From IMG/VR virus record IMGVR_UViG_3300046511_000152: a stretch of DNA of 64,000 nucleotides; one strand, 5' to 3'. The notes below the pieces were generated by a model. The model ran no database searches. It saw nothing but the letters and a program-made list of their open reading frames with translations, and was not told the origin of the DNA. Each line of letters starts with the position of its first letter. The first letter of the stretch is position 1. This DNA is from an uncultured virus (IMG/VR IMGVR_UViG_3300046511_000152) (Duplodnaviria; Heunggongvirae; Uroviricota; Caudoviricetes). This document shows positions 11,767-60,650 of the stretch, piece by piece. Position numbers and translations under genes: made by a program.

Positions 11767-12532
11767 TTGTGACCTCGCTTCCTGTGTACGGGTGGCTGCG
11801 GCCCGGTGCTCGGGGCGTGCAGCAGGTTCAGTACCAGCACGAACATCACGACGAGTCCTGCGACCATGACAATCATGCCATCCTCATGTGGCTGCGGACC
11901 ACGCGGGGCCGACGCTCACGGGTGCGGAACTTGTAGATGCCATTGAACGCTGTGGTCATGCGCTCCGCGAACGCCTTGGCCTGTTCCATCGTCCAGAAAC
12001 TCTGCTCCAGTTGCCAGCGCCCCGTGGGCATCTGGCACTCGACAACGAACGGGTGCTTGGGGTCGCGACAGGTCACAGCCGCTCGTCCACGAGTGCACGG
12101 ATGAACCGGGCACATTCCTCGATGGTGGGCAGCGTTGCGAGGGGCCCGTTCATTTCCCGCGTGGCGAGGAACACCGCGTAGTCCTTGCCTGCACGCTCGA
12201 CCGTGAAGTCGGTCAGCTTGAACATCACACCACCTCCGTCTTGACTCGCGTGAAGTGAATCATGTCCGACTGCGCGAGCTTCTTGTTGAGTTCCATGCCG
12301 GGGGGCAGGAGCATCACGACCGTACCATCGGGGTACTGGTCGAATACGAACTGTCCCACCGGGGTGTCTATCTTGACGAACGTCGCCTCTTTCAGCGTGA
12401 CCAGCTTGCGTGCATGGTCGTGCAGCGTCCTGTTCTTGTGTGGCACCTTGTGCTCCTGCTGTTGGGGTTGTACCTCTCCATCCGCGTGTTGCGGTAGGCG
12501 TGTACCGACGCCTCGTTCGTTCTGGAGATGCG

Positions 12533-12620
12533 GGGACGCGGCGGGACTCGCACCCACCTACACCCTACTCTCGGGTCATGACTCCCTACCCTCGGGTGAC
12601 TAGTCTCTATGACACGTCCC
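12533..12620 (-). ncRNA. tRNA-like structured element (not a canonical tRNA)
   Basis: Acceptor-like stem GGGACGUG/CGCGUCCC; T-arm GUGGG-UGCGAGU-CCCGC; two CCC-GAG(G/A)GUA-GGG hairpins. Confidence 0.45.
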
Positions 12621-12621
12621 A

Positions 12622-12652
12622 AAAGTGTGCACGGGGCTGGCATCGCCCCGTG
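12622..12652 (-). terminator. possible terminator or processing hairpin after the first early gene
   Basis: CACGGGGC-N7-GCCCCGUG followed by CACACUUUU. Confidence 0.4.
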
Positions 12653-12674
12653 TCTCACGTACAGCGTGCTGGCG

Positions 12675-12863
12675 TTACGCGGCCTTGCGGACCTTGCGGT
12701 AGGCGTTGAGGCCGAGGGTCACGTCCGTGCCGGGGATGACGATGTTGCCATGCGTGCTGGCGACCATCTCGGTCTTGCCCGAGGCGGACGGCCCGAGGTT
12801 CTCGGAGAGCTTGACGAGAATCGTGGCAACGTCGCCCTTGACCGTGATGCTGACGTTCGACAT
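12675..12863 (-). CDS. small phage protein, first gene of the early operon
   Basis: MSNVSITVKGD...GPSASGKT..VASTHGN; strong AGGAG RBS. Confidence 0.8.
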   Translation of the reverse strand: MSNVSITVKGDVATILVKLSENLGPSASGKTEMVASTHGNIVIPGTDVTLGLNAYRKVRKAA

Positions 12864-12885
12864 GGTGAGGCTCCTGTCTGATGCT

Positions 12886-12940
12886 GGTGGTTTCGCCCTG
12901 CTGGGGCTCATTCAGCCAGTGGGTTGACACTGGGACCACC
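12886..12940 (-). ncRNA. type III hammerhead ribozyme (one extra core nucleotide)
   Basis: GGUGGUC^CCAGUG-UCAACC-CACUGG-CUGAAUGA-GCCC-CAGCA-GGGC-GAAACCACC; stems I, II and III perfectly paired; GUC cleavage triplet. Confidence 0.85.
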
Positions 12941-13552
12941 TGCGAGCAAGGTGCTCGGACCGTTTCCGGTGCGTGCACGATGCCCGCGAGGGTGATGGCT
13001 TGCCTGCCTTCGTCCGGGTTTAGCGGTGTGTCACTCTCTTGTCGCTGCGCTGGGCTTGACTCACCTCGTCCCTTGCGGGTTGTGGTCACTGTCGTCGTCG
13101 CGCTGACTGTAGGAGCCGCCGCGTATCGTCCCGGGCTCATATCTGCCGTGCTGCTGCCACTGAGGCGGTCCGGGTCCGCAGCACGCTTCGCATGGGGACC
13201 ACCCTACAGCCTAAGTCGGTCCCCCGGCGTGCTGGTACTACCTTTCGCCGTGGCATCTCTGGCAGTTCGCAGCGTGACCTTTGCATCCCAGTGTGGGGCC
13301 ACGACTGACTGCGTGGCATCGCTCCCATGGACCGGGTGCTCCGGCTTCGGCTGCTATGTGCGGGTGACAGGGTGTCTTTTGACCGCGCCTGCTCGGTTCT
13401 CCGTCTCGCTTGTGTCAGGAGAGAGCCGAAGCACACCTTGGGAGTGTGCGGACGACTTACGTACGCGGCACCTAACGCGGGCTCCGCCCGCCTGCCCCTT
13501 CGCTTTGCCTATCTCGACCGGCCCCTCGCGGGTCCTGCCGTGTTCCGCTGCC
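12934..13552 (-). ncRNA. candidate ~620-nt structured ncRNA / leader RNA
   Basis: Lies between promoter and hammerhead; no credible ORF; nested long-range helices and GNRA hairpins. Confidence 0.65.
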
Positions 13553-13557
13553 CTTAC

Positions 13558-13586
13558 AGCTTATGTCCGCTGTTTCGCGGTGTCAA
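13558..13586 (-). promoter_or_regulatory. sigma70 promoter TTGACA-N17-TAAGCT with A-rich upstream segment
   Basis: Perfect -35, 17-nt spacer, upstream AACGGAGAAAACGAAACGG. Confidence 0.8.
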
Positions 13587-13653
13587 GGGGTCCGTTTCGT
13601 TTTCTCCGTTGGGTTTCGTCCGCCCGGCCGTTTGCCGGGGCACCGAAGTACTG

Positions 13654-13670
13654 TGCAAGGAGCTTGCCAA
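13654..13670 (-). promoter_or_regulatory. sigma54-type -24/-12 site TTGGCAAGCTCCTTGCA
   Basis: Matches YTGGCAC-N5-TTGCW except one base; exact GG-N10-GC spacing. Confidence 0.55.
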
Positions 13671-13743
13671 CGACCGCCCCATTGTGCGGCAACGACTTAC
13701 GAGGTTGTCAAGTCCTGCGTTTGGGCCATCCGCCCCTGTTTGG

Positions 13744-13934
13744 GTGTGTCCATTTTGACACACTCGCTCGTAAGGCGCGGCGCGGCACGGGCTTGGCGGG
13801 TGGGTTGGAGCGCCCAGCGTTTGGGGCATCTGGCGCAGCGCACTGGGCGCGGTGAGAGTTCACACGCCCATTGCAATGTGCACGGTGGGGACCGTGTAGC
13901 ATGTGTCTCCTGAGACACGTGTCCGTTTTGACAC
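13744..13934. repeat. three GTGTC-N6-GACAC palindromes (13746-13761, 13903-13918, 13919-13934)
   Basis: Directly visible; two copies are immediately tandem. Confidence 0.75.
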
Positions 13935-14097
13935 ACCCACGGCGGGGCTCGCGTGTCGTCACACGCACCGGCTGGGGAGGGTGGCCCTCTCGTCACCATG
14001 GGGTGGGGAGGAGACGGGTGGGGGGCACGACCCCAACTCGCGCGCCAGAAGAAAGAGGCAGGGTCCATGTGGCCCGCAGAAAAAAAGGAGTTTCACA

Positions 14098-14724
14098 ATG
14101 GCAGACGAGCCCAAGCGGGGCGCGCCACCGACGCGCAGGGAACAGGCAGAATCGTTCCTGCTGGCGAATCAGGCTGCAAAGGACTCGGAGGTCGCCGCCA
14201 GTACTGGCATTGATAAGGTTACAGTGGGGAGGGCCAGAGCCAACCTGATCAGTCAGGGTCTCCTGCCAGAGTCCACCCGGAAGCGCGCCACGCCCGCGAG
14301 GGCGAAAGCACCCGCCCGGCCGACCGGCCCCCCGCCTGACAGCCTACTGACAGACGCCGACATGCGCGACCTCGAACTGGGCGCGATGACCGACGAGGAC
14401 ACCCGCAAGAAAATCCTCACCGCCCTCCGCAAGATCGCCTTCTCCCCCGGCATCAACACTGAGACGGCCATGAACGCGATGGCCCTGTGGGTCAAGCTCA
14501 AGGACGCCGCCGCCTCCAAGGAACTCGGCCCCGGCAAGCCCCTCACCCGCGCTGACGCCAAGGAGCGCGTCCTCTCGCTCATGAAGGCGGTCGGCTTCGA
14601 CCTGATCTTCGAGTGCTTCCAAGAACTGTTCGTCCCCAAGGAGGCGACCCCCGATGAAGGGCTCGTACCCGCTGAACACCGCGAAGCTCCACCGGGTCCT
14701 GCTGGAGCTACTGCGGCACCCTGA
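14098..14724 (+). CDS. putative terminase small subunit
   Basis: N-terminal HTH-like DSEVAASTGIDKVTVGRAR; first gene of the late block; AAGGAG RBS. Confidence 0.55.
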   Translation: MADEPKRGAPPTRREQAESFLLANQAAKDSEVAASTGIDKVTVGRARANLISQGLLPESTRKRATPARAKAPARPTGPPPDSLLTDADMRDLELGAMTDEDTRKKILTALRKIAFSPGINTETAMNAMALWVKLKDAAASKELGPGKPLTRADAKERVLSLMKAVGFDLIFECFQELFVPKEATPDEGLVPAEHREAPPGPAGATAAP

Positions 14725-15049
14725 TGTCCATCTCACCTTCCAGATGATGACGGCCCAACAGGGCCACAACCTCTGGGACGAGATCATGCCCCCCACCGAC
14801 ATCCGTATCAAGGTGGACGCCAACCAGCAGACGGGCGTTGTCGATCACATCGGCACGGTCGTCCATGAACTCCTGCACATCGTCGTCTATCCGATGTCCC
14901 TCGGACGTTTCGCGGATGATCTGGACGAGGTGATGGTGCTCGCGCTGGATGCCTACATGCTCGCCTACATTCGCAAGAGCCCGAAGCGGCTCCACGAGTG
15001 GACTGAGGCGATCAACACGAAGCTGAAGGAGAGCGACGCCGAGGCGTAG
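14654..15049 (+). CDS. small zincin-like metallopeptidase
   Basis: VVHELLH (HExxH) followed by a downstream acidic helix. Confidence 0.55.
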   Translation: MKGSYPLNTAKLHRVLLELLRHPDVHLTFQMMTAQQGHNLWDEIMPPTDIRIKVDANQQTGVVDHIGTVVHELLHIVVYPMSLGRFADDLDEVMVLALDAYMLAYIRKSPKRLHEWTEAINTKLKESDAEA

Positions 15050-16407: not shown

Positions 16408-18279
16408 ATGATCGGCTGGGACACAGACGCAGAGCGCGACCTTTGGCGAGCAATCTGCGCTCCCAACTGCTGGTTCGGCAAGAAGGAGGGTGTGCCAGCA
16501 ACGCACCCTCGTTCTCTCCACTACTTCATCGACCTCTGCTGGGGCACGAAGTTCTACTTCGCCTCACACCCTGAGCAGGCGGTCTGGCTCTACGAGCCGA
16601 TCCACGGTCCGTACCTGACGTGGCTCCAGCACCACATCCTCACGTGGAAGGCCCTCGCCCGCAAGCAGAACATCGCCGCGCAGCAGTACTACATCGCCGT
16701 CGTCCTCCCCCGTGACTTCGGCAAGTCGCTGACCGCTACCAAGGCCGCGATGCTCTGGAACCACCTCGATGAGCCGGACATGAGCACCCTGATCTGCTCG
16801 GCCACCGCCCCCCTCGCCGTCGCGAACGTCAAGGCCATCAAGGCCATCGTCTCCGAAGACAGCGGGCAGGCGTGGTTCACGTGGCTCTACGGCAACTGGA
16901 AGAAGGGCGCGAAGACCTTCGCTGACGAGGCCATCGTCCACGGCTACCGCAAGGAACGCTCCTTGCAGGAAGAGTCGTTCGCCTCGACGGGCGTCGGCGC
17001 TGGTATGACCGGATGGCACCACCGTGTGCACGTCTGGGATGACCCGATCTACATCAACAAGCTGCGCGAGGGCGGCAACTACATGACGGGCGTGCACGAG
17101 GCTGTCAACGCCTCCTTCAACGCCCTCCAGAAGAACGGGCTCCTCATGTTCGTCCTCACCCGTTACCTCGACGATGATGTGGCTGGCCGCCACTTCCGCG
17201 ACGAGGGTGTTGCAACGTGGACTGGGATGCCTTGTCCCAACACGATGCAGTTCGATAAGGTCCCCTTCGGTAAGGGCTCGTGGCACGTCTTCTTCTGGCA
17301 GACCGAAGACGAACTCACGGGTGAGCCGACGCACCCGATCCTGTGGACCAAGGAGAAGATCACCGAGGCCAAGCGACGCAACGCGGAGGACTTCGCGTGC
17401 CAGCAGCAGAACAACCCCGGTACCTCGAACCTCTCCCCGCTCATCGAGTCGCAGCTTCCCGACCTCTTCATCGACTACACGGACTTCTTCTTCCAGATGC
17501 AGACCCTCGGCCATATCGAGGCTGCCTCTGTCCATATCGACACCGCGTTCAAGCGCAAGGAGACCATCGGCAAGGGCGATGACAACGCCATCGGCGTTTG
17601 GCTGCACGACGCCCGCCGCAATGGTATCCTCTACCTCGACACGGACCTCCTGCGCGCCAGCAACGAGTGGCGTGAAGAGGACTTCAACGACGAACTGATC
17701 AAGGTTCTCCTCAACCTCCGCCGACGCCAGATTCGCGTCAAGTGCCTCACGGACGAGGTCGAACCCGGAGGGAAGGCTGGATCGTACAAGAACCGATTGC
17801 TCGGTGTCGTGCGCGCTTCTGGCCTTCGCCTCACAGAAGACCAGTTCATCCAGTTCAACCGCACCACCGACAAGAAGGCTCGCATCCGCACCGGCACGGG
17901 CAACTGGGCCGAGGGCTACGTCCGCATCCTCCTGCACAAGGACAAGCAGGGTCAGTGGATCATCCCGCCTGTCGTTCGCAAGCTCTTCAACCAGATACTC
18001 CGCATCGACGTTGTCACCCACGAGGACATCGCTGACGCCCTCACTGACGGATTCGCCAAAGGCATCTGGCGGCGTCCCGATGTGCGGATGCCCGACACCG
18101 ACGAGGGTGATGTCCCCCGCTACCCGGGTGACGAGGCTCTCCGTTCCTTCTCCAAGCCGCTGACCAACGCAGAAGTCTTCGCGATGATCGACGCACAGAA
18201 GGAGATGAACGAGCACTTCGGCCCGATGCACGGACCAGACGACGGCTACCTCGACGAACCCTACGACCCCAATCGGTAG
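16408..18279 (+). CDS. terL: terminase large subunit
   Basis: Walker A LPRDFGKS, Walker B VHVWDD, nuclease motifs HIDTA and HEDIADALTD. Confidence 0.9.
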   Translation: MIGWDTDAERDLWRAICAPNCWFGKKEGVPATHPRSLHYFIDLCWGTKFYFASHPEQAVWLYEPIHGPYLTWLQHHILTWKALARKQNIAAQQYYIAVVLPRDFGKSLTATKAAMLWNHLDEPDMSTLICSATAPLAVANVKAIKAIVSEDSGQAWFTWLYGNWKKGAKTFADEAIVHGYRKERSLQEESFASTGVGAGMTGWHHRVHVWDDPIYINKLREGGNYMTGVHEAVNASFNALQKNGLLMFVLTRYLDDDVAGRHFRDEGVATWTGMPCPNTMQFDKVPFGKGSWHVFFWQTEDELTGEPTHPILWTKEKITEAKRRNAEDFACQQQNNPGTSNLSPLIESQLPDLFIDYTDFFFQMQTLGHIEAASVHIDTAFKRKETIGKGDDNAIGVWLHDARRNGILYLDTDLLRASNEWREEDFNDELIKVLLNLRRRQIRVKCLTDEVEPGGKAGSYKNRLLGVVRASGLRLTEDQFIQFNRTTDKKARIRTGTGNWAEGYVRILLHKDKQGQWIIPPVVRKLFNQILRIDVVTHEDIADALTDGFAKGIWRRPDVRMPDTDEGDVPRYPGDEALRSFSKPLTNAEVFAMIDAQKEMNEHFGPMHGPDDGYLDEPYDPNR

Positions 18280-42980: not shown

Positions 42981-43030
42981 GCAAAAAAGCCCCCACCAGA
43001 CCGACAAGGTCCGATGGGGGCTTTTTGCTT
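42981..43030. terminator. bidirectional intrinsic terminator
   Basis: GCAAAAAAGCCCCCA...TGGGGGCTTTTTGC at the convergence of two gene blocks. Confidence 0.85.
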
Positions 43031-45705: not shown

Positions 45706-46821
45706 TCAGAAGTGGTTCCGGGGGTCTTCGCCGGGGTGGGCATCCCTCCACTCCTTGATCATTTGCAATGTGAGCGCGTACCCGGCCGTGTCGGTCAGGT
45801 TGTCACGCTTGGCCGCGTTCCGGTGCCGGGACTGCTTCACGCAGATCATCGTCTGCCCGATGTCCTCGGCCTCCAGTCGCGCACCCGGCTTCAGCTTGTC
45901 CCGCAGCAACGCGGTCAGCATGTCGGCAGAGCGGGTCATGTCGAAGATCGGATGGCCGTAGCTCGCGCCACGGTCGCCCAGCACGAGGCGGTGCGCTTCC
46001 TGCGCGACGCTCTCAGTCGGTGTCGTGTGGTAGATCGGATCGATCTTGATGTCGATGCAGTCCAGCTTCGACGTAGACGGGTTACCCGTGACAGGGATGA
46101 ATCGGCCCGGTCGTGAGTAGAGTCCCTCCACATCCAACGTCCCCGGCTGCTTAGGAAACAGTTCCATCTGCTCCAACGTAGCATCCTTCATCTGTGCTGA
46201 GACGATCTCTTCATTCCGCTCTTTCCGCTCCTCAATCGCCTGCCGCACGTACATCACCGCGTCGAGCAGTTCCTGATAGAGGTCCACGAGTGCCTTGCGG
46301 CCGTTCTGGGTCTTCAGTTCCGTGCCGTACTTGGCGATGCCCTGCTCCCTGCGCTCCTTGATGTCGGCGAGCACGAGGTCGGTCACGCTGGTCTTGCCCT
46401 CGCTGGGGTCTTGCTGTGGTCTGGTTGTGTCACCCATGGCTTTCTCCTTCTGGCATGTTTCACACCACATCTCATGCCACGCGAGCATCGCGGCTTCTTT
46501 CGGACGAGGCTTCGGCAGCGGGGGAACACACGAGTGCCCGGTGTCCCCCGGCTTGAACTTGTACCCGCACACTGTGCACGGGGGGAACGTGTTCACGGTA
46601 CAGTACGGGCAGACCGTGCTACCGGGTCGCCCACACACCTGACACCGCATCACGTTCATCGGCTCTTCAACGATAGTGATCGGTTTGTTCCAAGCGATCC
46701 CACCCCCCGAGGGCCACAACGAAAGTGTCCCCACTGGTTTGTACTTGGTGAACCGTCCCTCGAACAGTCCCCGGAACTTGTCGTACGCCCCGAGGATCGG
46801 GTGCTTCTTCCGGAGGCCCAT
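45706..46821 (-). CDS. MazG-like nucleotide pyrophosphohydrolase / DUF6378-like fusion with Cys-rich N-terminus; possible internal start at 46437
   Basis: R...G..KYG..L...DLYQELLDA.MY; GDR...YGHP and K.SR...DN..D.AGYA; strong RBS before M at 46437. Confidence 0.7.
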   Translation of the reverse strand: MGLRKKHPILGAYDKFRGLFEGRFTKYKPVGTLSLWPSGGGIAWNKPITIVEEPMNVMRCQVCGRPGSTVCPYCTVNTFPPCTVCGYKFKPGDTGHSCVPPLPKPRPKEAAMLAWHEMWCETCQKEKAMGDTTRPQQDPSEGKTSVTDLVLADIKERREQGIAKYGTELKTQNGRKALVDLYQELLDAVMYVRQAIEERKERNEEIVSAQMKDATLEQMELFPKQPGTLDVEGLYSRPGRFIPVTGNPSTSKLDCIDIKIDPIYHTTPTESVAQEAHRLVLGDRGASYGHPIFDMTRSADMLTALLRDKLKPGARLEAEDIGQTMICVKQSRHRNAAKRDNLTDTAGYALTLQMIKEWRDAHPGEDPRNHF

Positions 46822-49328
46822 CAGGCCGCCATCTCGAAGGGTGCAACGTCACCCCACGACTTACCCGGGGCAGCAACTTCAACTTCAACAGGGATGTAGA
46901 AGCCCGGCTTGACGATGTCGAACCGCTGCTCCATGATCGCCTTCATCTCGGCGGCGGCTGCTGCCACGTTCGCACTCGGCACCTGAATCATGATCGAGTC
47001 GTGGACGGTCGTGGTCATGCGCCCTCCGAAGCGTCGCGCCATCGCCGCAACGCGGCTAAGTACGCACCAGAGGACATCAGCGACCGTTGACTGAGGTATG
47101 AAATCCACCGCTGCTGGTGCGTTGCCAGCATGGAAGAAACGGATTCGACCAAAGGCGTTCTTGATGTACTTCTTCGACTCGCAAAGCTGGACGAGGTGCA
47201 TCTTGTAGGCGTGGGTCTTGTAGTAGTACTTGGCGAGTTCCCCGAGGATTCGCTTACACTCCTCCACAGGCACATACTGGTGCTCCTGTTCTAGCAGCAT
47301 CTCGCTCACCTTCTGTGCTCCAGCGAGGTACTGACCGGCGTAGGTGATGTTCTTCGCGGTCTTGCGGCTCGTGTTGAACCGGACCGCGTTGCGCGAGTGC
47401 ATGTCACCGGAGCGCAAGTCTTCGAGCAGCCGGTCGTCGCCAGCCATGTAGGCCATCACGTACAACTCGGCGGACTTGTAGTCGGCCTGAATGAACGTCA
47501 TGTCCAGCGTGTCCGGCACGTACATGAACCGGACCGTCTTCGGCTGGTTCTGGATGTTCGGCCCGTAGGTCGCGAGCCGCCCGGTGCACGTGGTGCCCTT
47601 CGCGGTCTCCAAACCCAGGCCCGTGTCCTTCACCTCATGCTCCTGATCCTTGGAGACAGGCATGTAGGACGGGTGCACCCACGCCTCTTCGTTCATCGCG
47701 GCGGGCTGCACGTAGGTGCTGATGGTCTTGGCGCAGCCGCGCAGCTTCAACACGAGGTCGAAGAAGCGGGGTGTGCACCGGGAGTCTTCGGTCCAGCCAC
47801 CCGGGTGCTGCTTGCGGGCGTAGTCGTTGCCGACGTAGTACTGGAGCCGCACGAGGGCAAGCTCGTTCGTCGTCGCCCCGGCCTCCTTGCTCTTGGTCCG
47901 CTGCACCGGCAGGCCCCACTCACCGTACATGAGGTCCTGAAGCTGCTGCGTCGAGGCGGGGTTGGTGCCCGGGAAGTGCTGACCCCATATCTTCTCCAGC
48001 CGCAACTGCTTGCGCTCCAGCCGGGCCACGTGGCGCTCGGCAGCGGGGCGGTCCAACCTGATGCCCTCGCGGTTCATGGTGGTGAGTTCGCGGATCGTGG
48101 CGCACACGCCGGGTCCCGGGTGGTCGCCTTCGCCCATGAACAGGTTCCACGTGCCGAGGTTCTTCATCACGGTGATGATGCTGATCGCTAGCCATGCGGT
48201 GACGAAGGCATCCTTAGCAGAGTAGAAGCGCGGGTCGGCCTTGCTGAGTTCCGACCACATCGAGCCACGCTGGCCCTTCCACGGCTTTAGATCGTGGTAG
48301 ATTGTGATCGCACGGGCGAGGGACTTGTGAAGATCAGGTTGCAGGACAACTGCACCGAACATCGTATCAACGAGCCGGTGGTCGAGGACATGGTCCGAAA
48401 TCGAAACTCCATTCGCGATAAGGCGAGGGATGTCGAAGGGACTGTTATGAACAGCAAAGTACCTCCCCGGCAGGGCGAACAGGTAGTCCATGAAGTGGCG
48501 GGCATCGGTACTCCACTCCAGCGAGGCGGTGTGCTTGCCGTCGCTGAAGGAGACGAGGTCGATCACCTCGTTGCCCACGCCGTGGGTCTCGATGTCAACC
48601 GCGATCACGTCACCCCACTCCACGTTGGTGATGGAGCCGACGTGCAACTCAGTCAGGTCCCGGCCGAATCGCTTGGTGCAGAAGTCGGTGTAGAACCCAT
48701 CCTGCTCCAGCCGGTTGTCCAGCATGTGAAGCTCGCCGTCGATGGCCCTCTTGCACCGTCTCACGTCCTCCTTGAAGGCGGGGCGCACCGCGAACTGCTC
48801 CATGCGGATGTGGTCGAGCCCATAGCTGGGGATCACGACACCGTCGAACTGCTGGCCGAGGAGCCCACCCATCAGGGTAGTCTTCTGCCAGCCATAGCGC
48901 GGGTCACCCTTCTGGTGGCCGTTGCCCTTGTTCTTGTACTCACCGATCTTCTCCCATGACTCGGTCGTAACGGAGTGGAAGAAGTCCTTGTCGAGCACGT
49001 AACCGCGCGCGTCAAGGATGGTCTGCGTGATGCCGGTGAGCGGGTACAGCGTGTCGCCTTGCAGAGCCAGCACCGCCGAGGGACTCGACTCCCGAATCTC
49101 CTGACTGAAGCGGGGCCACGCTGCGCGGACCTGTGCCTTAGAGGGACGGCCACCACTGTTCGCAGGGGGCTCATCGATCAGGAACACGATCCGTACGTCA
49201 GTCTTCTGGATGTGGCACTCGTCCTGCACGATCTTCCAGAACCACGCGCGCATCCCGTCCGAAGGAGGGCTGATCATCGTGACCAGTAGGGGTGCGTCAA
49301 CTCTACCTTCGGCCTTTGAGTTTTCCAC
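46821..49328 (-). CDS. family A DNA polymerase with N-terminal UDG-like domain
   Basis: Exo motifs DIET, HNSPFD, YSAKD; Pol motifs ADYKSAEL, RKTAKNITYAGQY, VHDS; GTG start after GAGGAGG. Confidence 0.92.
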   Translation of the reverse strand: MENSKAEGRVDAPLLVTMISPPSDGMRAWFWKIVQDECHIQKTDVRIVFLIDEPPANSGGRPSKAQVRAAWPRFSQEIRESSPSAVLALQGDTLYPLTGITQTILDARGYVLDKDFFHSVTTESWEKIGEYKNKGNGHQKGDPRYGWQKTTLMGGLLGQQFDGVVIPSYGLDHIRMEQFAVRPAFKEDVRRCKRAIDGELHMLDNRLEQDGFYTDFCTKRFGRDLTELHVGSITNVEWGDVIAVDIETHGVGNEVIDLVSFSDGKHTASLEWSTDARHFMDYLFALPGRYFAVHNSPFDIPRLIANGVSISDHVLDHRLVDTMFGAVVLQPDLHKSLARAITIYHDLKPWKGQRGSMWSELSKADPRFYSAKDAFVTAWLAISIITVMKNLGTWNLFMGEGDHPGPGVCATIRELTTMNREGIRLDRPAAERHVARLERKQLRLEKIWGQHFPGTNPASTQQLQDLMYGEWGLPVQRTKSKEAGATTNELALVRLQYYVGNDYARKQHPGGWTEDSRCTPRFFDLVLKLRGCAKTISTYVQPAAMNEEAWVHPSYMPVSKDQEHEVKDTGLGLETAKGTTCTGRLATYGPNIQNQPKTVRFMYVPDTLDMTFIQADYKSAELYVMAYMAGDDRLLEDLRSGDMHSRNAVRFNTSRKTAKNITYAGQYLAGAQKVSEMLLEQEHQYVPVEECKRILGELAKYYYKTHAYKMHLVQLCESKKYIKNAFGRIRFFHAGNAPAAVDFIPQSTVADVLWCVLSRVAAMARRFGGRMTTTVHDSIMIQVPSANVAAAAAEMKAIMEQRFDIVKPGFYIPVEVEVAAPGKSWGDVAPFEMAA

Positions 49329-49695
49329 GAGCCCTCCTCGTCGTCCGGATTCGATGACAGTTTGAACAGACCAGTTCACATTTCTTCATCTCGCGTTCGA
49401 TCTGTGTGCGGGACCGTGAACCTGTAGAGGTGATCCCAAGACAGAACAGTTTACGGCCGCGTACATGATCCCAATCCATGCACTCCGGAGGGAAAGAGCC
49501 GCCGCAATCCACACACGGTTGGGACTTCAAAGAGTTCAACCATTCACGGTTCTCTGCTCTCCGAAGGACGGCCCGTCGATGATTCGCGCGCTTCGCGGCT
49601 TCCGGGTTCCGTGCTTCCCACCGGCCGTGCCGTTTGCGAAAATCTTTCTGGACCTTGAGCGCCTGACTTCGGTTACGGAGATACCAAGATTTCAT
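49303..49695 (-). CDS. HNH endonuclease
   Basis: PCVDCG...WDHV...CELVCSNCHRIRT. Confidence 0.85.
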   Translation of the reverse strand: MKSWYLRNRSQALKVQKDFRKRHGRWEARNPEAAKRANHRRAVLRRAENREWLNSLKSQPCVDCGGSFPPECMDWDHVRGRKLFCLGITSTGSRSRTQIEREMKKCELVCSNCHRIRTTRRARGKLKGRR

Positions 49696-53965: not shown

Positions 53966-54904
53966 TCATTCTTCGCTCCCTTCAGGAGTCTCGTACGTGT
54001 CTTCCCGCTGCTTGAAGTAGCGGTCATCTCCCAGTTCGTACTCACCCGTGAGGACACGGAAGTACTCGTCTGGACTGTTACCGAACATCCCACCGTTCAT
54101 GTTCTCGTTGGGGGCGGGGATGAAGCCTCCAGCGCACAGCTTGCGGCACGCCCGCATCTCTTGAGCGTGCTGTCGGATCGAGTCCATGACATGCTGGTGC
54201 AGCGGACCGTCGAGGTCGATGGACAGCGGAATCTGCTGGAACATCTCCTCGTACCGCTTGCACTCACCAAGGGGATTGGCCTTGGTGATCTTGGTCCGGT
54301 ACTTCAGCTTCCGGATCAGGTCGAACTGCGTGCCACCGTAGCCCCTCACCATAGTACGGTACTTCCTGAAGAGGGCTTCGGCGTAGAGGTGCTCGTGGTA
54401 ACTGCGCTTGGCGAGGTCGGTGAAGACCGCGAAGTGCGTGCCCGCCGCCAGTGCCTTGTGCTGAACATGCCATAGAAGCCCGTCACGTACAGCCACACGG
54501 TCAGGGCGACCGCGCCCAACGATACCGTCTCCCAACTCCACCTCAAAGGGAACCTCCGCTTCGAGGCACGGGTTGTCGAATGTGTAGATGTCCTGCCACT
54601 GGACCAGTGCCTCCGTCAGGTCATCCAACTGCTTCAGCACCTTCGTACCCACAGCGACATCCACCTCGTCGGTGGACGTTGCCATCATACCCAGCCAGTG
54701 ACCACGGTGGAGTGTGATGCACTCCGATATCTTGTACTCACCACTGTGGTACGTCTCGAAGATTCGATGGATCAGCTTGCCGAAGCCCAGCGGCTGGGCC
54801 TCATGCTTGGGTACGTAGTTCATCACCCACTTGGCCCACCAGCGGAAGCGACACTTCGTGAAGTCCTGCATCTCACTGACGTTGAAGACGAACGGCTCAG
54901 GCAC
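53966..54904 (-). CDS. PD-(D/E)XK (Cas4/RecB-like) nuclease
   Basis: S...F.KC..RW, FG.LIH..FE, E..F and GRPD...VQHK motifs. Confidence 0.8.
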   Translation of the reverse strand: MPEPFVFNVSEMQDFTKCRFRWWAKWVMNYVPKHEAQPLGFGKLIHRIFETYHSGEYKISECITLHRGHWLGMMATSTDEVDVAVGTKVLKQLDDLTEALVQWQDIYTFDNPCLEAEVPFEVELGDGIVGRGRPDRVAVRDGLLWHVQHKALAAGTHFAVFTDLAKRSYHEHLYAEALFRKYRTMVRGYGGTQFDLIRKLKYRTKITKANPLGECKRYEEMFQQIPLSIDLDGPLHQHVMDSIRQHAQEMRACRKLCAGGFIPAPNENMNGGMFGNSPDEYFRVLTGEYELGDDRYFKQREDTYETPEGSEE

Positions 54905-55613
54905 TCGGCACCTCGAACTTGTGCATCGCGTCGTTGTCCACGGTGGCCTTGAACATGGTGCCCGTGGCGTAGTGGAACACGACGATGCCCTCGGCGGGCT
55001 GGTCCGGGGCGGCGACTGAGCCATCCTTGTGTAGCCAGTCGATGAAGAAGTCCGGAGCGAACCACCGCCTGAAGGAGTTCGCCACGTCAACGTACCCGAG
55101 GTTGTTCACCCACGGCCCCTCGTACAGGACGGGGACGACGGAGATAGCGACACCGTTCTTCCGGATGTCTTCCAGTTCCGGGGTCAACCGCCACGGGTGC
55201 CCAGCCTCCTTGACGAACCACTTGTCGGTGTTGAAGAGCGAGAACGTCTTGCCCGACTGACCGTACCCGCGCTGGATGCCCTTACCCCACCACTCACCGA
55301 AGTGAGTGCCGATGCCGAGGGCGTAGCGCAGGGCCTCCGCGTTCGCGTCAACCCACGCGCGGAAGCCGAAGTTGTCCTTCTGGGGCGTGAGCACCCGGGT
55401 GCGCGACTGTGCGTACACCTGAGTCTCGGTGATGACGACGGCCGCGTTGGTGCCATCGATCTTCTCGGTGATGACGATGTCCCGGTTCAGGCGGCCGATC
55501 TTCGGCCATGGCTTGAACTCCGGAGCAGCCGCGAGGAACCGCTCCTCGGCCTCAGCCGCGAGCCTCCGCGTCTCGGCACGCACTGCCAGTTCTTCAGGCG
55601 TCAGCTTGGACAT
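54897..55613 (-). CDS. ATP-dependent RNA ligase (Rnl2-like nucleotidyltransferase domain)
   Basis: Motif I TEKIDGTNA; QSR, DNFGF, FGEWWG.GIQ, VPVLY and EGIVV...K. Confidence 0.85.
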   Translation of the reverse strand: MSKLTPEELAVRAETRRLAAEAEERFLAAAPEFKPWPKIGRLNRDIVITEKIDGTNAAVVITETQVYAQSRTRVLTPQKDNFGFRAWVDANAEALRYALGIGTHFGEWWGKGIQRGYGQSGKTFSLFNTDKWFVKEAGHPWRLTPELEDIRKNGVAISVVPVLYEGPWVNNLGYVDVANSFRRWFAPDFFIDWLHKDGSVAAPDQPAEGIVVFHYATGTMFKATVDNDAMHKFEVPSA

Positions 55614-56295
55614 CTGCACCCTCCACGCTTCCGAAGTCCTCACGACCCGCCGCCTGCAACTCAGCCTCGGCCGCGATCTTGTCGAGCACCGCCTGCTTCT
55701 CGGGCGACACCGCACCAGCCCACGCGAGGGCATCACCTTCGACCTGATTCAACTCCTCGTCCACCGGAGCATCGACCTTCGTCTCGGTCTCCAACAGGAT
55801 CGGCTGGGGCAGCTTCACGCGAACCTGCCGCATGAGCACCACGACCATCAGGCCACTGCCGTTGGGCAGGAGCGCCGACAACTGCCACTGCTCCGGACCG
55901 TTCACCTTCTGCGTGATGTAGCCACCCGCAGCCTTGGTGCTGAGGGACTCAGTGTGGAAGATCACCTGCGGGGCGACGAGCACCATGCCCTCGCCGGTCT
56001 CGACCAACTGGGACTTCGGGTAGTAGTGCGCGATGTTCGGGTCGAGGTCGTACTTGGTCCAGTCTTCCTTCGCCGGGTCGAACGCCTCCTCGGCCGCCGC
56101 TGCCCCTGCCGCATCCTGCGCGGCCGTCTCGGCCGTGCCATCCGACGGGGTGCCACTCTCGACAGCCTCCTCGGTGGTGGGCTTGTTCAGGCCCAGCCGC
56201 TCCATCAGGGCCTCGACGCTGGTCTTCAGCGGACCGGCTTCGAGATTGTACTCGGACTCTGCGGGGGTCTCGGGGGTGTTCTGCTCGTCACTCAT
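55594..56295 (-). CDS. hypothetical acidic protein
   Basis: ORF with AAAGGAG RBS. Confidence 0.7.
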   Translation of the reverse strand: MSDEQNTPETPAESEYNLEAGPLKTSVEALMERLGLNKPTTEEAVESGTPSDGTAETAAQDAAGAAAAEEAFDPAKEDWTKYDLDPNIAHYYPKSQLVETGEGMVLVAPQVIFHTESLSTKAAGGYITQKVNGPEQWQLSALLPNGSGLMVVVLMRQVRVKLPQPILLETETKVDAPVDEELNQVEGDALAWAGAVSPEKQAVLDKIAAEAELQAAGREDFGSVEGADVQADA

Positions 56296-56599: not shown

Positions 56600-57223
56600 T
56601 CAGCACCCCTTCGGCAACTGATCCGTCCGGGGGCGGATGATGGACAACACCTTGCGGACGAAGATCGGCTCGGGGAGCATCCGCATCACCGCGCGTGCCC
56701 ACAGGAAGTCGTGGATGTTCTTGTCCTTGTCGAACTGCTCCCACGTCGGAAGCCCCTCGATGTTGGGCATGACGAGCATCGGGGTCCCAGTGTTGCAGAG
56801 CCTGATCTCAGGGTCAGCCCACAGCAAGCGGCCATCACCGTACTCCATCTGGAAGACGAGGAGTTTGTCCGGGTAGCGAACGATTCGATCCCTCGCTGCG
56901 GCGAGTGCGTCGGCAACGAAGATGTCATCGTCGTCACAGAACATCAGGTGTGTCCCCTTCGAGATGGCGATACCGTGGTCTCGCTGTGAGGCCCCGCTGT
57001 TGCGCGTGCGCTCCTCAGTGCGTGAGAAGATCAGGTTCGCTCCGGTGGGGATGCCATCGAGTGGGATGGCAGGCCAGTAGTCACCCAGCCCATCATGCAC
57101 CACGATCAGTTCGTCCCCGGCCCGAAGCTGGCCGAGGATGCTCATGACGGTGGCCTTCAGGCTCAGGCGTCCCTTCGTCGGGACGATGACACTAATGCGG
57201 ATGTCCTTGTCATCGAAGTCCAT
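56600..57223 (-). CDS. GT2 glycosyltransferase
   Basis: ISVIVPT..R, ELIVVHDG and HLMFCDDDD motifs. Confidence 0.85.
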   Translation of the reverse strand: MDFDDKDIRISVIVPTKGRLSLKATVMSILGQLRAGDELIVVHDGLGDYWPAIPLDGIPTGANLIFSRTEERTRNSGASQRDHGIAISKGTHLMFCDDDDIFVADALAAARDRIVRYPDKLLVFQMEYGDGRLLWADPEIRLCNTGTPMLVMPNIEGLPTWEQFDKDKNIHDFLWARAVMRMLPEPIFVRKVLSIIRPRTDQLPKGC

Positions 57224-57436
57224 TCTTGTCCTCCCTGCTCTGTGCCTCCATCATGATCTCGTGGAACATCCGGCTGATGGCCTGCATGTACATGCTGGTG
57301 GTTGCCGGTTCCTCCTCGTGATCGGTGACGATGGCTTGTCGGTAGAACGTCATGCCCTGAACCTCGGCCCGGACCTCGACGCGGCGGGTGTCACCAGTGT
57401 ACCGGGTGATGCGCTCGACTGCAACGAAGAAGCGGC

Positions 57437-58165
57437 TCATTGAGGCACCCCGTCCCACAGTTGGAACTGGCGAGCATACCGCAACTCGGGTACGTCAACC
57501 CCGATGATGTTCATGATCTGCTCCCGTGTGGGCTTGATGATCGAGATGATCTCGGGGTGCCAGACGACCGGACAACCTGTCGCTTGATGGTAGTTGTGCA
57601 TCACCCAGAAGTCCTCACTGATGTTCGCTACCCCGTTCGAGGCAGAGCGGTCCCACTTCAGGAGGGGGCTATTCGGCATGACGTACATCGAGCCACCGAT
57701 GTTGCCCAACCGGATCAGGCCCTCATGGCCCCACATGACGCGCTCGTTGTTGACCACGACTGAGTCGGGGCTGGTCCACTGGCCCTTCACACCGTACTGC
57801 ATCCGGAAGATGTGCCATGCGGTGGGGTTCTCAGCCGCTGCCAGTCTCCCTCGCGAGAGTGCGTCAGGAAGGAACAGGTCGTCGTCATCGATGCACATGA
57901 GATGCGTGCCCTTCGCCACGGCCCGGCCTGCATCACGCTCGGGTCCACCGCTCGGGTAGCCGGGCTGGGTGCTCAGGGTCGCACCTGTCGTTGGGTCACA
58001 CCCACCGTTGTCGAACGGCACCCACACGAACTCCCGGTCGGCCTCGGGTTTCCGGGGACTCACCACGATCAGTTCGTCTTCGGGTGATAGCTGCGAGAGG
58101 ATACCCTTCACCACACGCTCTAGCGACGGCCGCCCACACGAGGGCACGATCACACTGAGACTCAT
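57437..58165 (-). CDS. GT2 glycosyltransferase (paralog of 56600-57223)
   Basis: LSVIVPS.GR, DELIVV, GTHLMCIDDDD and ED motifs. Confidence 0.85.
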   Translation of the reverse strand: MSLSVIVPSCGRPSLERVVKGILSQLSPEDELIVVSPRKPEADREFVWVPFDNGGCDPTTGATLSTQPGYPSGGPERDAGRAVAKGTHLMCIDDDDLFLPDALSRGRLAAAENPTAWHIFRMQYGVKGQWTSPDSVVVNNERVMWGHEGLIRLGNIGGSMYVMPNSPLLKWDRSASNGVANISEDFWVMHNYHQATGCPVVWHPEIISIIKPTREQIMNIIGVDVPELRYARQFQLWDGVPQ

Positions 58166-58872
58166 AGTTCCCCCCAGAGGCGGTCGAGGTTTCGGACCAC
58201 GCCGATCTCGCCCGTGCTCATCTGTGCCATCTTCATGTAGTGAATCTGTCTCATCCGCTCCATCTCAGCCCCGAGGTTGTGGCGCTCGTGAGGCATGTGG
58301 ACAGCGGTGATATCCGGGTGGTGGAAGAACTTGACGCCCATCATGTTCAGGCGGAAGGCAAGGTCATCATCCTCGTAACCGTACTCGGTGAAGTCCTCGT
58401 CGTACCCTCGGAGGAAGCGGAGGGCCTTGGTGTCCATGCCACCGAAGAGGAAGTAGGGGCGCTGGCTGCCGGGAACCTCGACACCGTTCTCGGTGATGCG
58501 GGCGAGGTGTGCGTGGTTGTCCTGAGCGACCATGTGGTCGTACAGCTTAGACAGCGCGTCGTGCGAGGGCACGATCCCAGTGTGACACATCACGGTGAAC
58601 CGCCCCTTGGAGCGGAGGATACCGGCGTTGAGGGGCCGCGCCGGGTTGAGCCACCGCGTACCACCGCGCTCGATCCGGAAGTACTCCACGTCGTACGGAA
58701 GTTCCTCCAGCACGGCGGGCACGTTCTCGATGCTGGAGTCATCCACCACGATGAACTGGTGGCTCACATCGATGCGCGGTCCGTACATGAACGCCGCCAT
58801 CGTCTGGCGGAAGTGCTCGACCCGGTTGTGCACCGGGACGACCACGGTCAGGTCATAGGTTGCTGCTGACAT
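58162..58872 (-). CDS. GT2/GT7-like glycosyltransferase
   Basis: VVVPVHNR, IVVDDSS, LNAG and GYDEDF..YGYEDDDL motifs. Confidence 0.85.
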   Translation of the reverse strand: MSAATYDLTVVVPVHNRVEHFRQTMAAFMYGPRIDVSHQFIVVDDSSIENVPAVLEELPYDVEYFRIERGGTRWLNPARPLNAGILRSKGRFTVMCHTGIVPSHDALSKLYDHMVAQDNHAHLARITENGVEVPGSQRPYFLFGGMDTKALRFLRGYDEDFTEYGYEDDDLAFRLNMMGVKFFHHPDITAVHMPHERHNLGAEMERMRQIHYMKMAQMSTGEIGVVRNLDRLWGEL

Positions 58873-60650
58873 ATGAACTCCTTGATGGCCGTGAGGACCT
58901 CGTCCTTGGTCATGACGTAGCCCGTGGGGTCGTAGACATCGTAGTTGTGCCACATGCGGTACGTGCTGCGCCAGTCAGGGATGTGGAACAGGTCCACAAG
59001 TTCCCGCACCGTCACTGCCTCGGTCACGATGTTGCGCTCCATGATGTCCTGATCCCGGGTCCACTGGATGTCGGACCACAGCCGGGTCAGCGGATACCAC
59101 TGGAACTTGGAGTTGATCGACTCCTCGTGAATCTTCGTCGGGTAGTGCAGGAGATCGTAGATCAGGTTCTTCTTCAGGCCGGGGCCGAACAGGCCGGGCA
59201 GGCGGATGACGCGGCACTTCGGGAAGTGGTCCTTGGCCCACCGCTCCAAGTCCTTCCGGTGCCGACCGTAGTCGGTGGACGGGAGGTTGTAGTACGGATG
59301 ATCGAGGGCATCGATGGTGCTGAGGAGGATGAACTCATCAGCCGTCGTCTTGCCCAGCATCTCCTTCAGCCGTTCGACTGCCTTCCAGTCTTCGTTCGGA
59401 TGCAGGTTCGCCTCCCACTTCGTTCCACTGGGGGCAGCACACACGATCTGATCGTAGTGGCCGGGAGCCAGAGGGCGGGTGGAGTTAGACAAGTCTGTCC
59501 AGCGCCCTTCCGCCATGAGCGAGTTACCGACAAGCCCAGTGAACCCCACCAAGGCTCTCCGTCCACGCCGGAGTACGCCAGTCTTGCCCTCCTGCATCCA
59601 CTCCCCTCGCTCGATCTCATCGACGGCATCGTAGAACGAGTTGAACTTGGAACCCAGTATTGAAATGACCCGAGGAGACTCGTTCGCATACTCCCACAAG
59701 ATCGGTCGTCCATCGTTCTCCTCGTTCTGCGCCAGTACGACGCGGGTGGTCCACAGCGAGCGGAGGTACTTGGCCTCGGCCATGATGGGGACGAAGCGGG
59801 CAGCGTCGGTCTGCATCTCTGCCCACTTGGTGAGCTTGTCCAATGGAGGGTGAGCCTCGTCGTTGAACCACTCGAAGTGCGGGGTGTGCGTGACATGCGT
59901 GAGTGCGTGCAGTCCGTTGGGCGGGTACTTCATGACCGACCAGTACGGCCCGTCCATCACGGTGATGTCCGTATCCTGAAGCTCGCGAGGGATCGAGCAC
60001 AGCGCGACCTCGACCCACTCCTTCTTCAGCTTGGTCTTGAGGTCCACGGTCTTGTCGAGGTTGGCGTACGTGCAGTTGAAGACGTAGCGCCCGTGCATCA
60101 GATACCAGTACTTGTCCATCGTGACCTGAACCTCGACGTACTTGCCGGTGTCCACGAGCGGGAGGCCCGTCCCCTTGATGACAGGGATGCGAGCGATGTG
60201 AATCTGCTCACGGATCATCTCACGGAGGATGTTCACGTTGAAGCTGATCTCCTCGACCTGATACACAGCCTCGATCAGCTTGGGATCGAACAGGCTCGGG
60301 ACAGTGGGCACGCGGTCCACCGGGGCACCGATCTCCCTCGCGACGCGCTCGAACTCGTCCGGGCTCGTCTTGCTGTCCTTCGCGATGGCGTACAGGTGCT
60401 CGACGTTGGGCACCATGGCCGCAGCGTGGTCCACGAGGAAGCGACGGTAGTGCTTGGCCGCTGACAGGGCGGTGGCTGCGAAGCGGGGGTAGTGCATCCC
60501 GCTGTGCACCCGGGCCTGATTCACCTCGGTTGCACCGTGCATGAGACTGTCGGGCTCGATGATGCAGACCTTGAGGCCCACGTTGTGGAGGGCCAGAGCG
60601 ACCTTGCATCCGTAGAATCCCCCTCCCAACACAATCGCGTCGTAGTTCAC
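58848..60650 (-). CDS. FAD-dependent oxidoreductase fused to an NAD-dependent epimerase/SDR-like domain
   Basis: N-terminal GGGFYG and NQARVH.G.HYPR; C-terminal GFTGLVG, LSTID, YG.HR..LE and RLPGLFG. Confidence 0.85.
   Translation of the reverse strand: MNYDAIVLGGGFYGCKVALALHNVGLKVCIIEPDSLMHGATEVNQARVHSGMHYPRFAATALSAAKHYRRFLVDHAAAMVPNVEHLYAIAKDSKTSPDEFERVAREIGAPVDRVPTVPSLFDPKLIEAVYQVEEISFNVNILREMIREQIHIARIPVIKGTGLPLVDTGKYVEVQVTMDKYWYLMHGRYVFNCTYANLDKTVDLKTKLKKEWVEVALCSIPRELQDTDITVMDGPYWSVMKYPPNGLHALTHVTHTPHFEWFNDEAHPPLDKLTKWAEMQTDAARFVPIMAEAKYLRSLWTTRVVLAQNEENDGRPILWEYANESPRVISILGSKFNSFYDAVDEIERGEWMQEGKTGVLRRGRRALVGFTGLVGNSLMAEGRWTDLSNSTRPLAPGHYDQIVCAAPSGTKWEANLHPNEDWKAVERLKEMLGKTTADEFILLSTIDALDHPYYNLPSTDYGRHRKDLERWAKDHFPKCRVIRLPGLFGPGLKKNLIYDLLHYPTKIHEESINSKFQWYPLTRLWSDIQWTRDQDIMERNIVTEAVTVRELVDLFHIPDWRSTYRMWHNYDVYDPTGYVMTKDEVLTAIKEFICQQQPMT

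Follow-up and report, generated by a model that had tools for sequence, protein, structure and literature searches.

A lineage-specific, structured leader ahead of a hammerhead ribozyme in a soil phage genome

What does a phage carry in several hundred nucleotides of DNA that lie between a promoter-like site and a hammerhead ribozyme and hold no evident gene? The question arises in the stretch of uncultured-virus DNA that was analysed here at its full length of 64,000 nt (the window), which represents a ~64-kb soil phage genome or most of one. The original prediction had read positions 12934-13586 as a unit running from a sigma-70 promoter to a ribozyme and specifying a highly structured non-coding RNA (ncRNA) of ~620 nt, possibly of a new large class. 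Our analysis leads to the view that the leader is real, structured and lineage-specific, being restricted to one clade, and is not a demonstrated new giant RNA class.

Genome setting and non-coding nature of the leader

The window encodes a terminase large subunit (16408-18279), a DNA polymerase (46821-49379), portal, major head and holin proteins and further replication genes. Some 25 small genes, among which family matches are almost absent, run leftward from ~12863 to 220, and rightward genes run from 14098 to ~42845. These arms are separated by a divergent control region of ~1.2 kb (12864-14097) that contains neither genes nor a third-position GC signal; lying between the two arms, the leader sits in this region, on the side feeding the leftward genes. 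Every gene block of the window is T-poor on its sense strand, and the A/T skew reverses near 13950 and again near 43000, in both cases at an operon boundary. In the replication arm, three family-2 glycosyltransferase-like genes are clustered with an FAD-dependent oxidoreductase-like gene (56603-60650, (-)). An RNA ligase (PF09414, 58.3 bits) and a calcineurin-like metallophosphoesterase are encoded at 54897-55736 and 220-933, both (-). Enzymes of these types act on 5′-OH and 2′,3′-cyclic phosphate ends such as hammerheads leave, and are usually read as tRNA repair functions.

Searches of annotated phage records with the DNA of 12600-14100 (blastn) or with the terminase (tblastn) returned nothing. 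The viral contigs yielded an identical one as well as the relatives L002 and L003, whose flanking proteins are 61-77% identical, and a metagenome fragment, L011, extends to a part of the leader that we call the island. Searches with neighbouring proteins returned three viral contigs each and three short metagenome contigs; an alignment search with the protein of the first leftward gene returned seven viral contigs, and the protein search of genome contigs none. DNA-pattern scans recovered at most the same three viral contigs and nothing in genome contigs, nhmmer with the intergenic region matched six of 54 loci, all of them close relatives, and the protein and pattern scans gave no further leader homologue beyond L002, L003 and L011. 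A terminase search delineated a wider family of 49 loci with conserved gene order, on contigs of 57-66 kb. The elements of the locus are listed in order along the window.

12675..12863 (-), first leftward gene, 62 aa, all-beta, no known family
12886..12940 (-), type III hammerhead, predicted cleavage after C12934; three-stem shape in the minimum free energy (MFE) fold, z -2.25
12942..12987 (-), GAAA-capped hairpin directly 5′ of the hammerhead; z -4.02, 0/200 shuffles
13000..13130 (-), 3′ block, the most conserved part between window and L002 (88.5%), unalignable in L003
13143..13265 (-), mid domain III, with UGCCAC/GUGGCA and stems 13234-27/13186-79 and 13224-18/13200-194
13269..13354 (-), mid domain II, nested stems, with terminal hairpin GCCACG/CGUGGC and conserved loop CAGUCAGU
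13372..13471 (-), island, a four-way-junction RNA module of ~100 nt with covarying pairs in a four-sequence alignment
13515..13540 (-), 5′ hairpin with GCGA-type loop; 9 pairs, none varying between window and L002, loop changes
13558..13586 (-), sigma-70-like promoter TTGACA-N17-TAAGCT, predicted start near 13551
13654..13669 (-), sigma-54-type -24/-12 element TGGCA-N7-TGCA, predicted start near 13643
13681..13701 (-), DNA motif copy A, CGTAAGTCGT then TGCCGCACAAT, just upstream of the sigma-54-type site

The first leftward gene has an AGGAG ribosome-binding site 3′ of the hammerhead, and its start codon follows the hammerhead end by 22 nt. The 62-aa product matched no Pfam family; its AlphaFold model, built from just five sequences, is all-beta (pLDDT 72.9). 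An RNA-binding role for this protein was considered and dropped, Foldseek against the PDB having returned nothing better than E 2.1.

A non-coding stretch between a promoter-like site and a hammerhead, as had been proposed, was found with all of its elements. Positions 12912-14097 show no GC3 periodicity and contain stops in all three sense frames, and the leader has stops in every frame in all three phages (window, L002 and L003). Mismatches between window and L002 fall evenly on the codon phases (52/46/62), the gaps in their alignment measure 9, 4, 2, 1, 1, 1, 1 and 16 nt, mostly not multiples of three, and no open reading frame of the stretch matched a PHROG family. A coding function or a leader peptide is ruled out by this absence of periodicity, the even mismatch phases, the frame-breaking gaps and the lack of a PHROG match, and the predicted ~620 nt without a credible reading frame stand.

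The leader is nonetheless conserved. Its identity to L002 is 71.0% overall, 79.0% in the island and 88.5% in the 13000-13130 block, against 59-77% for the flanking genes and 51.7% for the spacer 13721-14020. In L003 the island is retained (88.8% over 107 nt) together with parts of the mid region, and the 3′ block is not. Across the wider family the leader sequences form unrelated groups and the layout recurs: in each of the 11 members measured, 300-730 nt of leader containing 6-15% U separate the hammerhead from the last sigma-54-type site. L046, L050 and L052 have another leader module, unrelated in sequence and 87-92% identical among these otherwise distant members, which lies ~45-130 nt past the last sigma-54-type site and holds a GGGACC-GCAA-GGUCCC hairpin.

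Rfam 15 gave no match at the gathering score anywhere in the 64-kb window, ROOL and GOLLD included; within the leader, with E up to 10, only chance-level rows appeared apart from the weak hammerhead, and 17 loci of relatives gave tRNAs only. The leader hence lies outside the Rfam families, as had been thought possible. A new large ncRNA class does not follow: homologues were found in only three contigs and one fragment, and a covariance model of the island finds no distant members.

Promoter-like elements and DNA motifs

The sigma-70-like site comprises TTGACA at 13586-13581 (6/6 matches), a 17-nt spacer and TAAGCT at 13563-13558 (3/6). It is kept in L002 and, as an identical 29-nt version, in the distant relative L042, both with a -10 of CATACT (4/6), and is deleted in L003. 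Our consensus scanner, which takes at least 4/6 per hexamer at 16-18 nt spacing, did not call the window site because its -10 matches at only three of six positions. The promoter of the original prediction is thus present in its hexamers and spacer and is kept in L002, but its -10 is poor and L003 is without it.

The sigma-54-type element lies 85 nt further upstream, has GG and GC 12 nt apart in a TGGCAC-N5-TTGCW context, is the sole exact match to TGGCANNNNNNTTGCW in the 64-kb window and is invariant across the window, L002 and L003. Equivalent regions of family members contained one to five same-strand sites of this type in 16 of 17 cases, up to five in tandem; such sites in relatives lie, among other loci, in L055 2513-4247 and L042 2629-3909. 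Among the 59 window proteins scanned with Pfam, none matched a sigma-54 activator family. With this second promoter element upstream, the leader 5′ end is uncertain and the length would be ~618 or ~710 nt; the 5′ hairpin forms the 5′ end of the leader if it starts at the sigma-70-like site. The idea of an earliest transcript from a unique promoter finds no support, since the better conserved element is the upstream one (13669-13654).

The window has two copies of a ~20-nt motif, CGTAAGTCGT with GCCGCACA-like bases after it, at 13681-13701 and 13444-13461 (-), the second copy (B) lying inside the island. In relatives it adjoins a sigma-54-type site in either orientation (L042 ~3298; L055 ~3115 and ~3205; L050 ~3451), which points to a protein-binding DNA site and suggests that the motif is a candidate for one. 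Because the invariant 16-nt run of the island repeats this upstream motif, some of the island's conservation may be conservation of DNA. Two near-identical 18-nt palindromes (GTGTCC.TTTTGACACAC, 94% alike), 173 nt apart and each with a plus-strand TTGACA, are found in the control region's rightward half at 13746-13763 and 13919-13936 (+); they may be operators.

Such elements raise the alternative that the whole region acts mainly as DNA, through promoters, sites for activators or repressors and perhaps an origin, the RNA being a discarded by-product whose helices are incidental to GC-rich sequence. The sigma-54-type and sigma-70-like elements, the two palindromes, the motif found in either orientation in relatives and the motif copy within the island are what this reading would lead one to expect. 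We nevertheless hold it to be improbable: most of the DNA elements that can be recognised are found upstream of 13550 rather than in 12941-13440, and the comparisons described in the following section bear on it further.

Conserved structure within the leader

Single-sequence folding and helix counts were at chance, in keeping with a DNA-level role. The 618-nt leader had an MFE z of -1.15 on the sense strand, where 3/20 shuffles folded as well, the antisense strand giving -0.65. There were 15, 5 and 2 perfect helices with a minimum length of 7, 8 and 9 bp, against 11.9, 3.1 and 0.8 in dinucleotide shuffles, and these counts were equalled by 49-65 of 300 shuffles; GNRA-type words numbered 31, with 25.1 expected and 28/500 shuffles doing as well. 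As the sequence is 62-64% GC, helices picked by eye are not evidence alone. Taken singly, the island (z -1.09), domain II (-0.03) and the 5′ hairpin (-0.61) did not stand out, whereas domain III (-1.86, 7/200 shuffles), the hairpin preceding the ribozyme (-3.13 to -4.02) and the hammerhead (-2.25) did. Two words recur, CAGUCAG (2 copies, 0.12 expected) and GGACGA (3 copies, 0.31 expected), both chosen after looking.

Comparison with relatives gave a different picture. The fold was predicted from the window alone and then applied to L002 and L003, with slid and shuffled alignments as controls. On this fold 90.3% of L002 cells are paired, and 16 pairs are changed on both sides yet remain paired; six slid controls gave 0-2 such pairs, and shuffled ones 8.1 ± 2.0 (0/500). 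With L003 added, such double-changed pairs number 25, against 5-10 slid and 10.9 ± 2.5 shuffled. In RNAalifold shuffles of alignment columns, the sense strand reached z -1.99 overall (1/60), -2.15 in the island and -2.84 in the mid part (columns 205-440; 0/60), compared with -0.32, -1.23 and -1.19 on the antisense strand; in the 3′ third, where L003 is not alignable, the three-way alignment gave z +0.9. The sequences in this set (window, L002, L003 and fragment L011) are all closely related and the shuffle control ignores kinship, so that the covariation counts rest on few events, and tests on three to four related sequences give a consistent signal, not proof. The comparisons support the conclusion that the leader carries RNA structure under selection on the sense strand. 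Compensatory double changes far above slid controls, conserved-structure scores that differ between strands and conserved G-U pairs, which are unexpected for DNA sites, all stand against a purely DNA-level function. Structure is thus supported in local modules that covary in relatives, the single-sequence folding being ordinary (z -1.15).

The five helices named in the original prediction are all perfectly complementary in the window, and they fared differently in relatives. A long-range helix was to close a domain of ~340 nt. Its first part, 13469-62/13125-18, keeps 8/8, 7/8 and 5/8 pairs in the window, L002 and L003, and its continuation, 13455-50/13131-26, keeps 6/6, 4/6 and 1/6; a 9-bp stem, 13432-24/13352-44, keeps 9/9, 7/9 and 3/9. 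The 5′ arms of these three unconserved helices are taken up by covarying island helices, with which they clash, and the three find no support. In L002, pairing is complete in helices 13234-27/13186-79 (8/8) and 13224-18/13200-194 (7/7), GCCACG/CGUGGC and UGCCAC/GUGGCA are also kept, and all four show double-sided changes. The evidence favours a leader RNA built as a chain of local modules rather than as a closed 340-nt domain.

Among these modules, the island is built from P1, two hairpins, one of 3 bp and the other of 7 bp and capped by a CCCAA loop, and a bulged arm of 10 bp whose 15-nt loop is conserved. When four sequences are aligned, 97.4% of cells across 29 pairs are paired and seven pairs show double-sided changes, against 0-1 when slid, which supports P1, the 7-bp hairpin and the bulged arm; the conserved G-U pairs are compatible with the minus strand only. 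A covariance model of the island (R1) found four true matches in 37 sources, namely the window, L002, L003 and L011, with one chance row at E 5.8 and nothing in more distant family members. The start of the 15-nt loop (YGAC) and a junction GUCR could form a 4-bp pseudoknot (13408-13405/13383-13380, (-)), whose variable pair is U-A, C.A, U-G and C-G in the four sequences, three of which pair. In domain II the terminal hairpin is 95-100% paired, with two to three pairs double-changed in L002 and L003; domain III has six double-changed pairs in L002. The 3′ block includes a hairpin (13057-13088) whose inner stem is GNRA-capped; one of its pairs is double-changed, and its GCAA loop becomes GCGA in L002.

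The position of the island, 80-170 nt past the candidate starts, its compact junction fold with invariant unpaired nucleotides, and the unrelated 87-92% conserved module at an equivalent 5′-proximal place in L046, L050 and L052 would suit a cis-acting transcription-elongation element, put-like or riboswitch-like, that would modify RNA polymerase or sense a ligand and so let it traverse the 13-kb operon. On the minus strand of 12400-15000, however, no intrinsic terminator-like site was called, the leader is U-poor, and no Rfam riboswitch matched. In work on HK022 put RNA, severing the tether between RNA and polymerase reportedly lowers antitermination, and a downstream ribozyme would accordingly work against a put-like role. 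We regard an elongation element as most improbable.

The hammerhead and the fate of the leader

The MFE fold of the hammerhead is a three-way junction with stems of 6, 4 and 6 bp, stems I and II being loop-closed and stem III open. GUC and CGAAAC are present in the core, and the first core strand, CUGAAUGA, is 8 nt long with one extra A after A6 (A6a), which the Rfam alignment places behind CUGA; L058 has the same kind of 8-nt core. Rfam Hammerhead_3 (RF00008) has a gathering score of 48.5 bits, which the L003 orthologue passes at 49.1 bits and the window copy, at 28.2 bits (E 8.9e-4), does not reach. Between the window, L002 and L003 stems I and II diverge and the core is kept. Our own shape scanner, which may miss variants, located the hammerhead shape in 13 of the 20 family contigs with at least 2.3 kb upstream of the 208-aa gene, each time at this position and in this orientation, and nowhere else in ~667 kb on both strands. 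Intact cores with stem I inserts of ~85-125 nt are found in L038 (2537-2714), L046 (2941-3107) and L052 (2342-2478), all (-), and the L052 insert holds a T-loop-like GGTTCGAAGCC hairpin; the notion that these inserts are tRNA-like was dropped, as ARAGORN finds none. In L042 (~2655-2715, (-)) the orthologous site holds a degenerate hammerhead with CCGAUGA for CUGANGA and an extra A before GAAA, which may be a ribozyme decaying in that lineage.

The A6a insertion is described as a natural hammerhead core variant of low activity in the part of PMC3088659 drawn on here, and cutting in the window is on that account probably slow and partial. Taken together with the degenerate L042 copy, the A6a core indicates that cleavage may be weak or dispensable. 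With a core of this kind, the clean, ribozyme-defined 3′ end of the original prediction finds no support.

The hammerhead could serve instead to mature the 3′ end of a stand-alone ncRNA of ~620-710 nt, which, capped by a terminal hairpin and a cyclic phosphate, would accumulate and bind a host or phage factor in trans as a decoy, sponge or scaffold; this is the view of the original prediction. Several observations would fit: loops and junctions are conserved besides stems (the 15-nt loop and CCCAA of the island; CAGUCAGU), conservation of the leader equals or exceeds that of the neighbouring genes, the window, L003 and L050 each have a very stable hairpin where the released RNA would end, the CAGUCAG and GGACGA words recur (post hoc choices), and the phage encodes an RNA ligase (PF09414, 58.3 bits). 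The hairpin at this end in the window is the GAAA-capped one, which would form the 3′ terminus of a released leader; those in L003 and L050 are similarly strong but non-homologous. Such a hairpin is prominent in just 3/10 members tested, however, and was dropped as a family rule. From one sub-clade to the next, moreover, the leader is wholly replaced, with the ribozyme and the first gene retained, the window ribozyme is a low-activity variant, and the GGA word of a CsrA/RsmA-type sponge is not enriched in the leader (14 vs 13.3), so that a sponge of this type was rejected. A trans-acting RNA is therefore a possibility that we rate as unlikely.

We consider it fairly probable, though well short of assured, that the region is a processed, structured 5′ leader of the leftward, presumed early, operon, in which the ribozyme fixes the 5′ end of the message and the modules act in cis. 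What the data establish is the anatomy, the absence of coding, the conservation and the covariation; transcription itself, cleavage in vivo and every functional role are what we infer, and the sequence of events would be as follows. Transcription would start at the sigma-70-like site (~13551), the sigma-54-type site (~13643) or both, giving a leader of ~618 or ~710 nt, which would fold into the 5′ hairpin, the four-way-junction island, the two mid domains, the 3′ block with its hairpin and the stable terminal hairpin. The type III hammerhead would cut after C12934, splitting from the message a leader with a 2′,3′-cyclic phosphate end and leaving on the message the ribozyme body and a 5′-OH, 22 nt ahead of the first start codon. 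Whichever promoter fired, the ribozyme would thereby give the message one defined, structured 5′ end, in the manner of an engineered insulator. The U-poor folded leader would persist as a long untranslated RNA, and its conserved modules, the island above all, would act in cis on early transcription or on the fate of the message, probably as protein-binding sites.

A bolder variant would have this family of soil phages run its leftward operon from sigma-54-type promoters that drive a U-depleted, modular, lineage-specific RNA that a hammerhead releases and that, stable and trans-acting, captures or blocks a host factor, the island being a new protein-binding or catalytic fold. We think it rather doubtful that the locus is such an undescribed RNA system.

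Comparison with known systems

Hammerheads in phage transcripts have been known since 2011, and the RNA upstream of them has been little studied. Here the upstream RNA is long, covaries, lies outside catalogued families and matches or exceeds the neighbouring genes in conservation, within a family layout of interchangeable leaders that runs from the sigma-54-type promoter or promoters through a long U-poor leader and a hammerhead to the first gene. Sigma-54-type promoters heading a phage operon would be unusual in themselves. If the modules are functional, phages use elaborate leader RNAs together with ribozymes to set up early expression, and the locus would offer a concrete system in which to test why phages retain self-cleaving ribozymes.

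ROOL and GOLLD are large phage-associated ncRNAs of several hundred nucleotides with multiple domains and unknown function. The leader resembles them in being several hundred nucleotides long, phage-borne and multi-domain, and differs in that it matches no Rfam family, is fused to an operon, is made of local modules and was found in only three contigs and one fragment. RiboJ-type insulators place a hammerhead-type ribozyme upstream of a ribosome-binding site, where it removes a variable 5′ leader and fixes the 5′ end of the message. The hammerhead here likewise lies just upstream of a ribosome-binding site, but the element is natural, and insulation alone would not account for an upstream leader that is itself conserved and structured. 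The antiterminator RNA put of HK022 is compact, structured and encoded shortly after phage early promoters; the likeness, by description and position, is that of a compact structured RNA soon after candidate promoters. No obvious terminators are seen here, and the downstream ribozyme would cut the tether.

Among the matches listed by a literature search on hammerheads with sigma-54 in phages, none mentions a hammerhead. The sections of Perreault et al. 2011 (PMC3088659) on which we draw include the A6a insertion seen here among their natural core variants and describe no conserved structured leaders ahead of hammerheads. In haloviruses HF1/HF2, according to the same sections, a hammerhead stands before the first open reading frame of a polycistronic early transcript, and the 5′ end mapped for that transcript is no more than 3 nt from the cleavage site (PMC3088659). 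The present ribozyme shares with the halovirus one its place between untranslated upstream RNA and the first gene of such a transcript, here a presumed one; as far as those sections describe the HF1/HF2 locus, the phage differs from it in having a type III ribozyme, a conserved, structured leader of 600-700 nt and a sigma-54-type element upstream.
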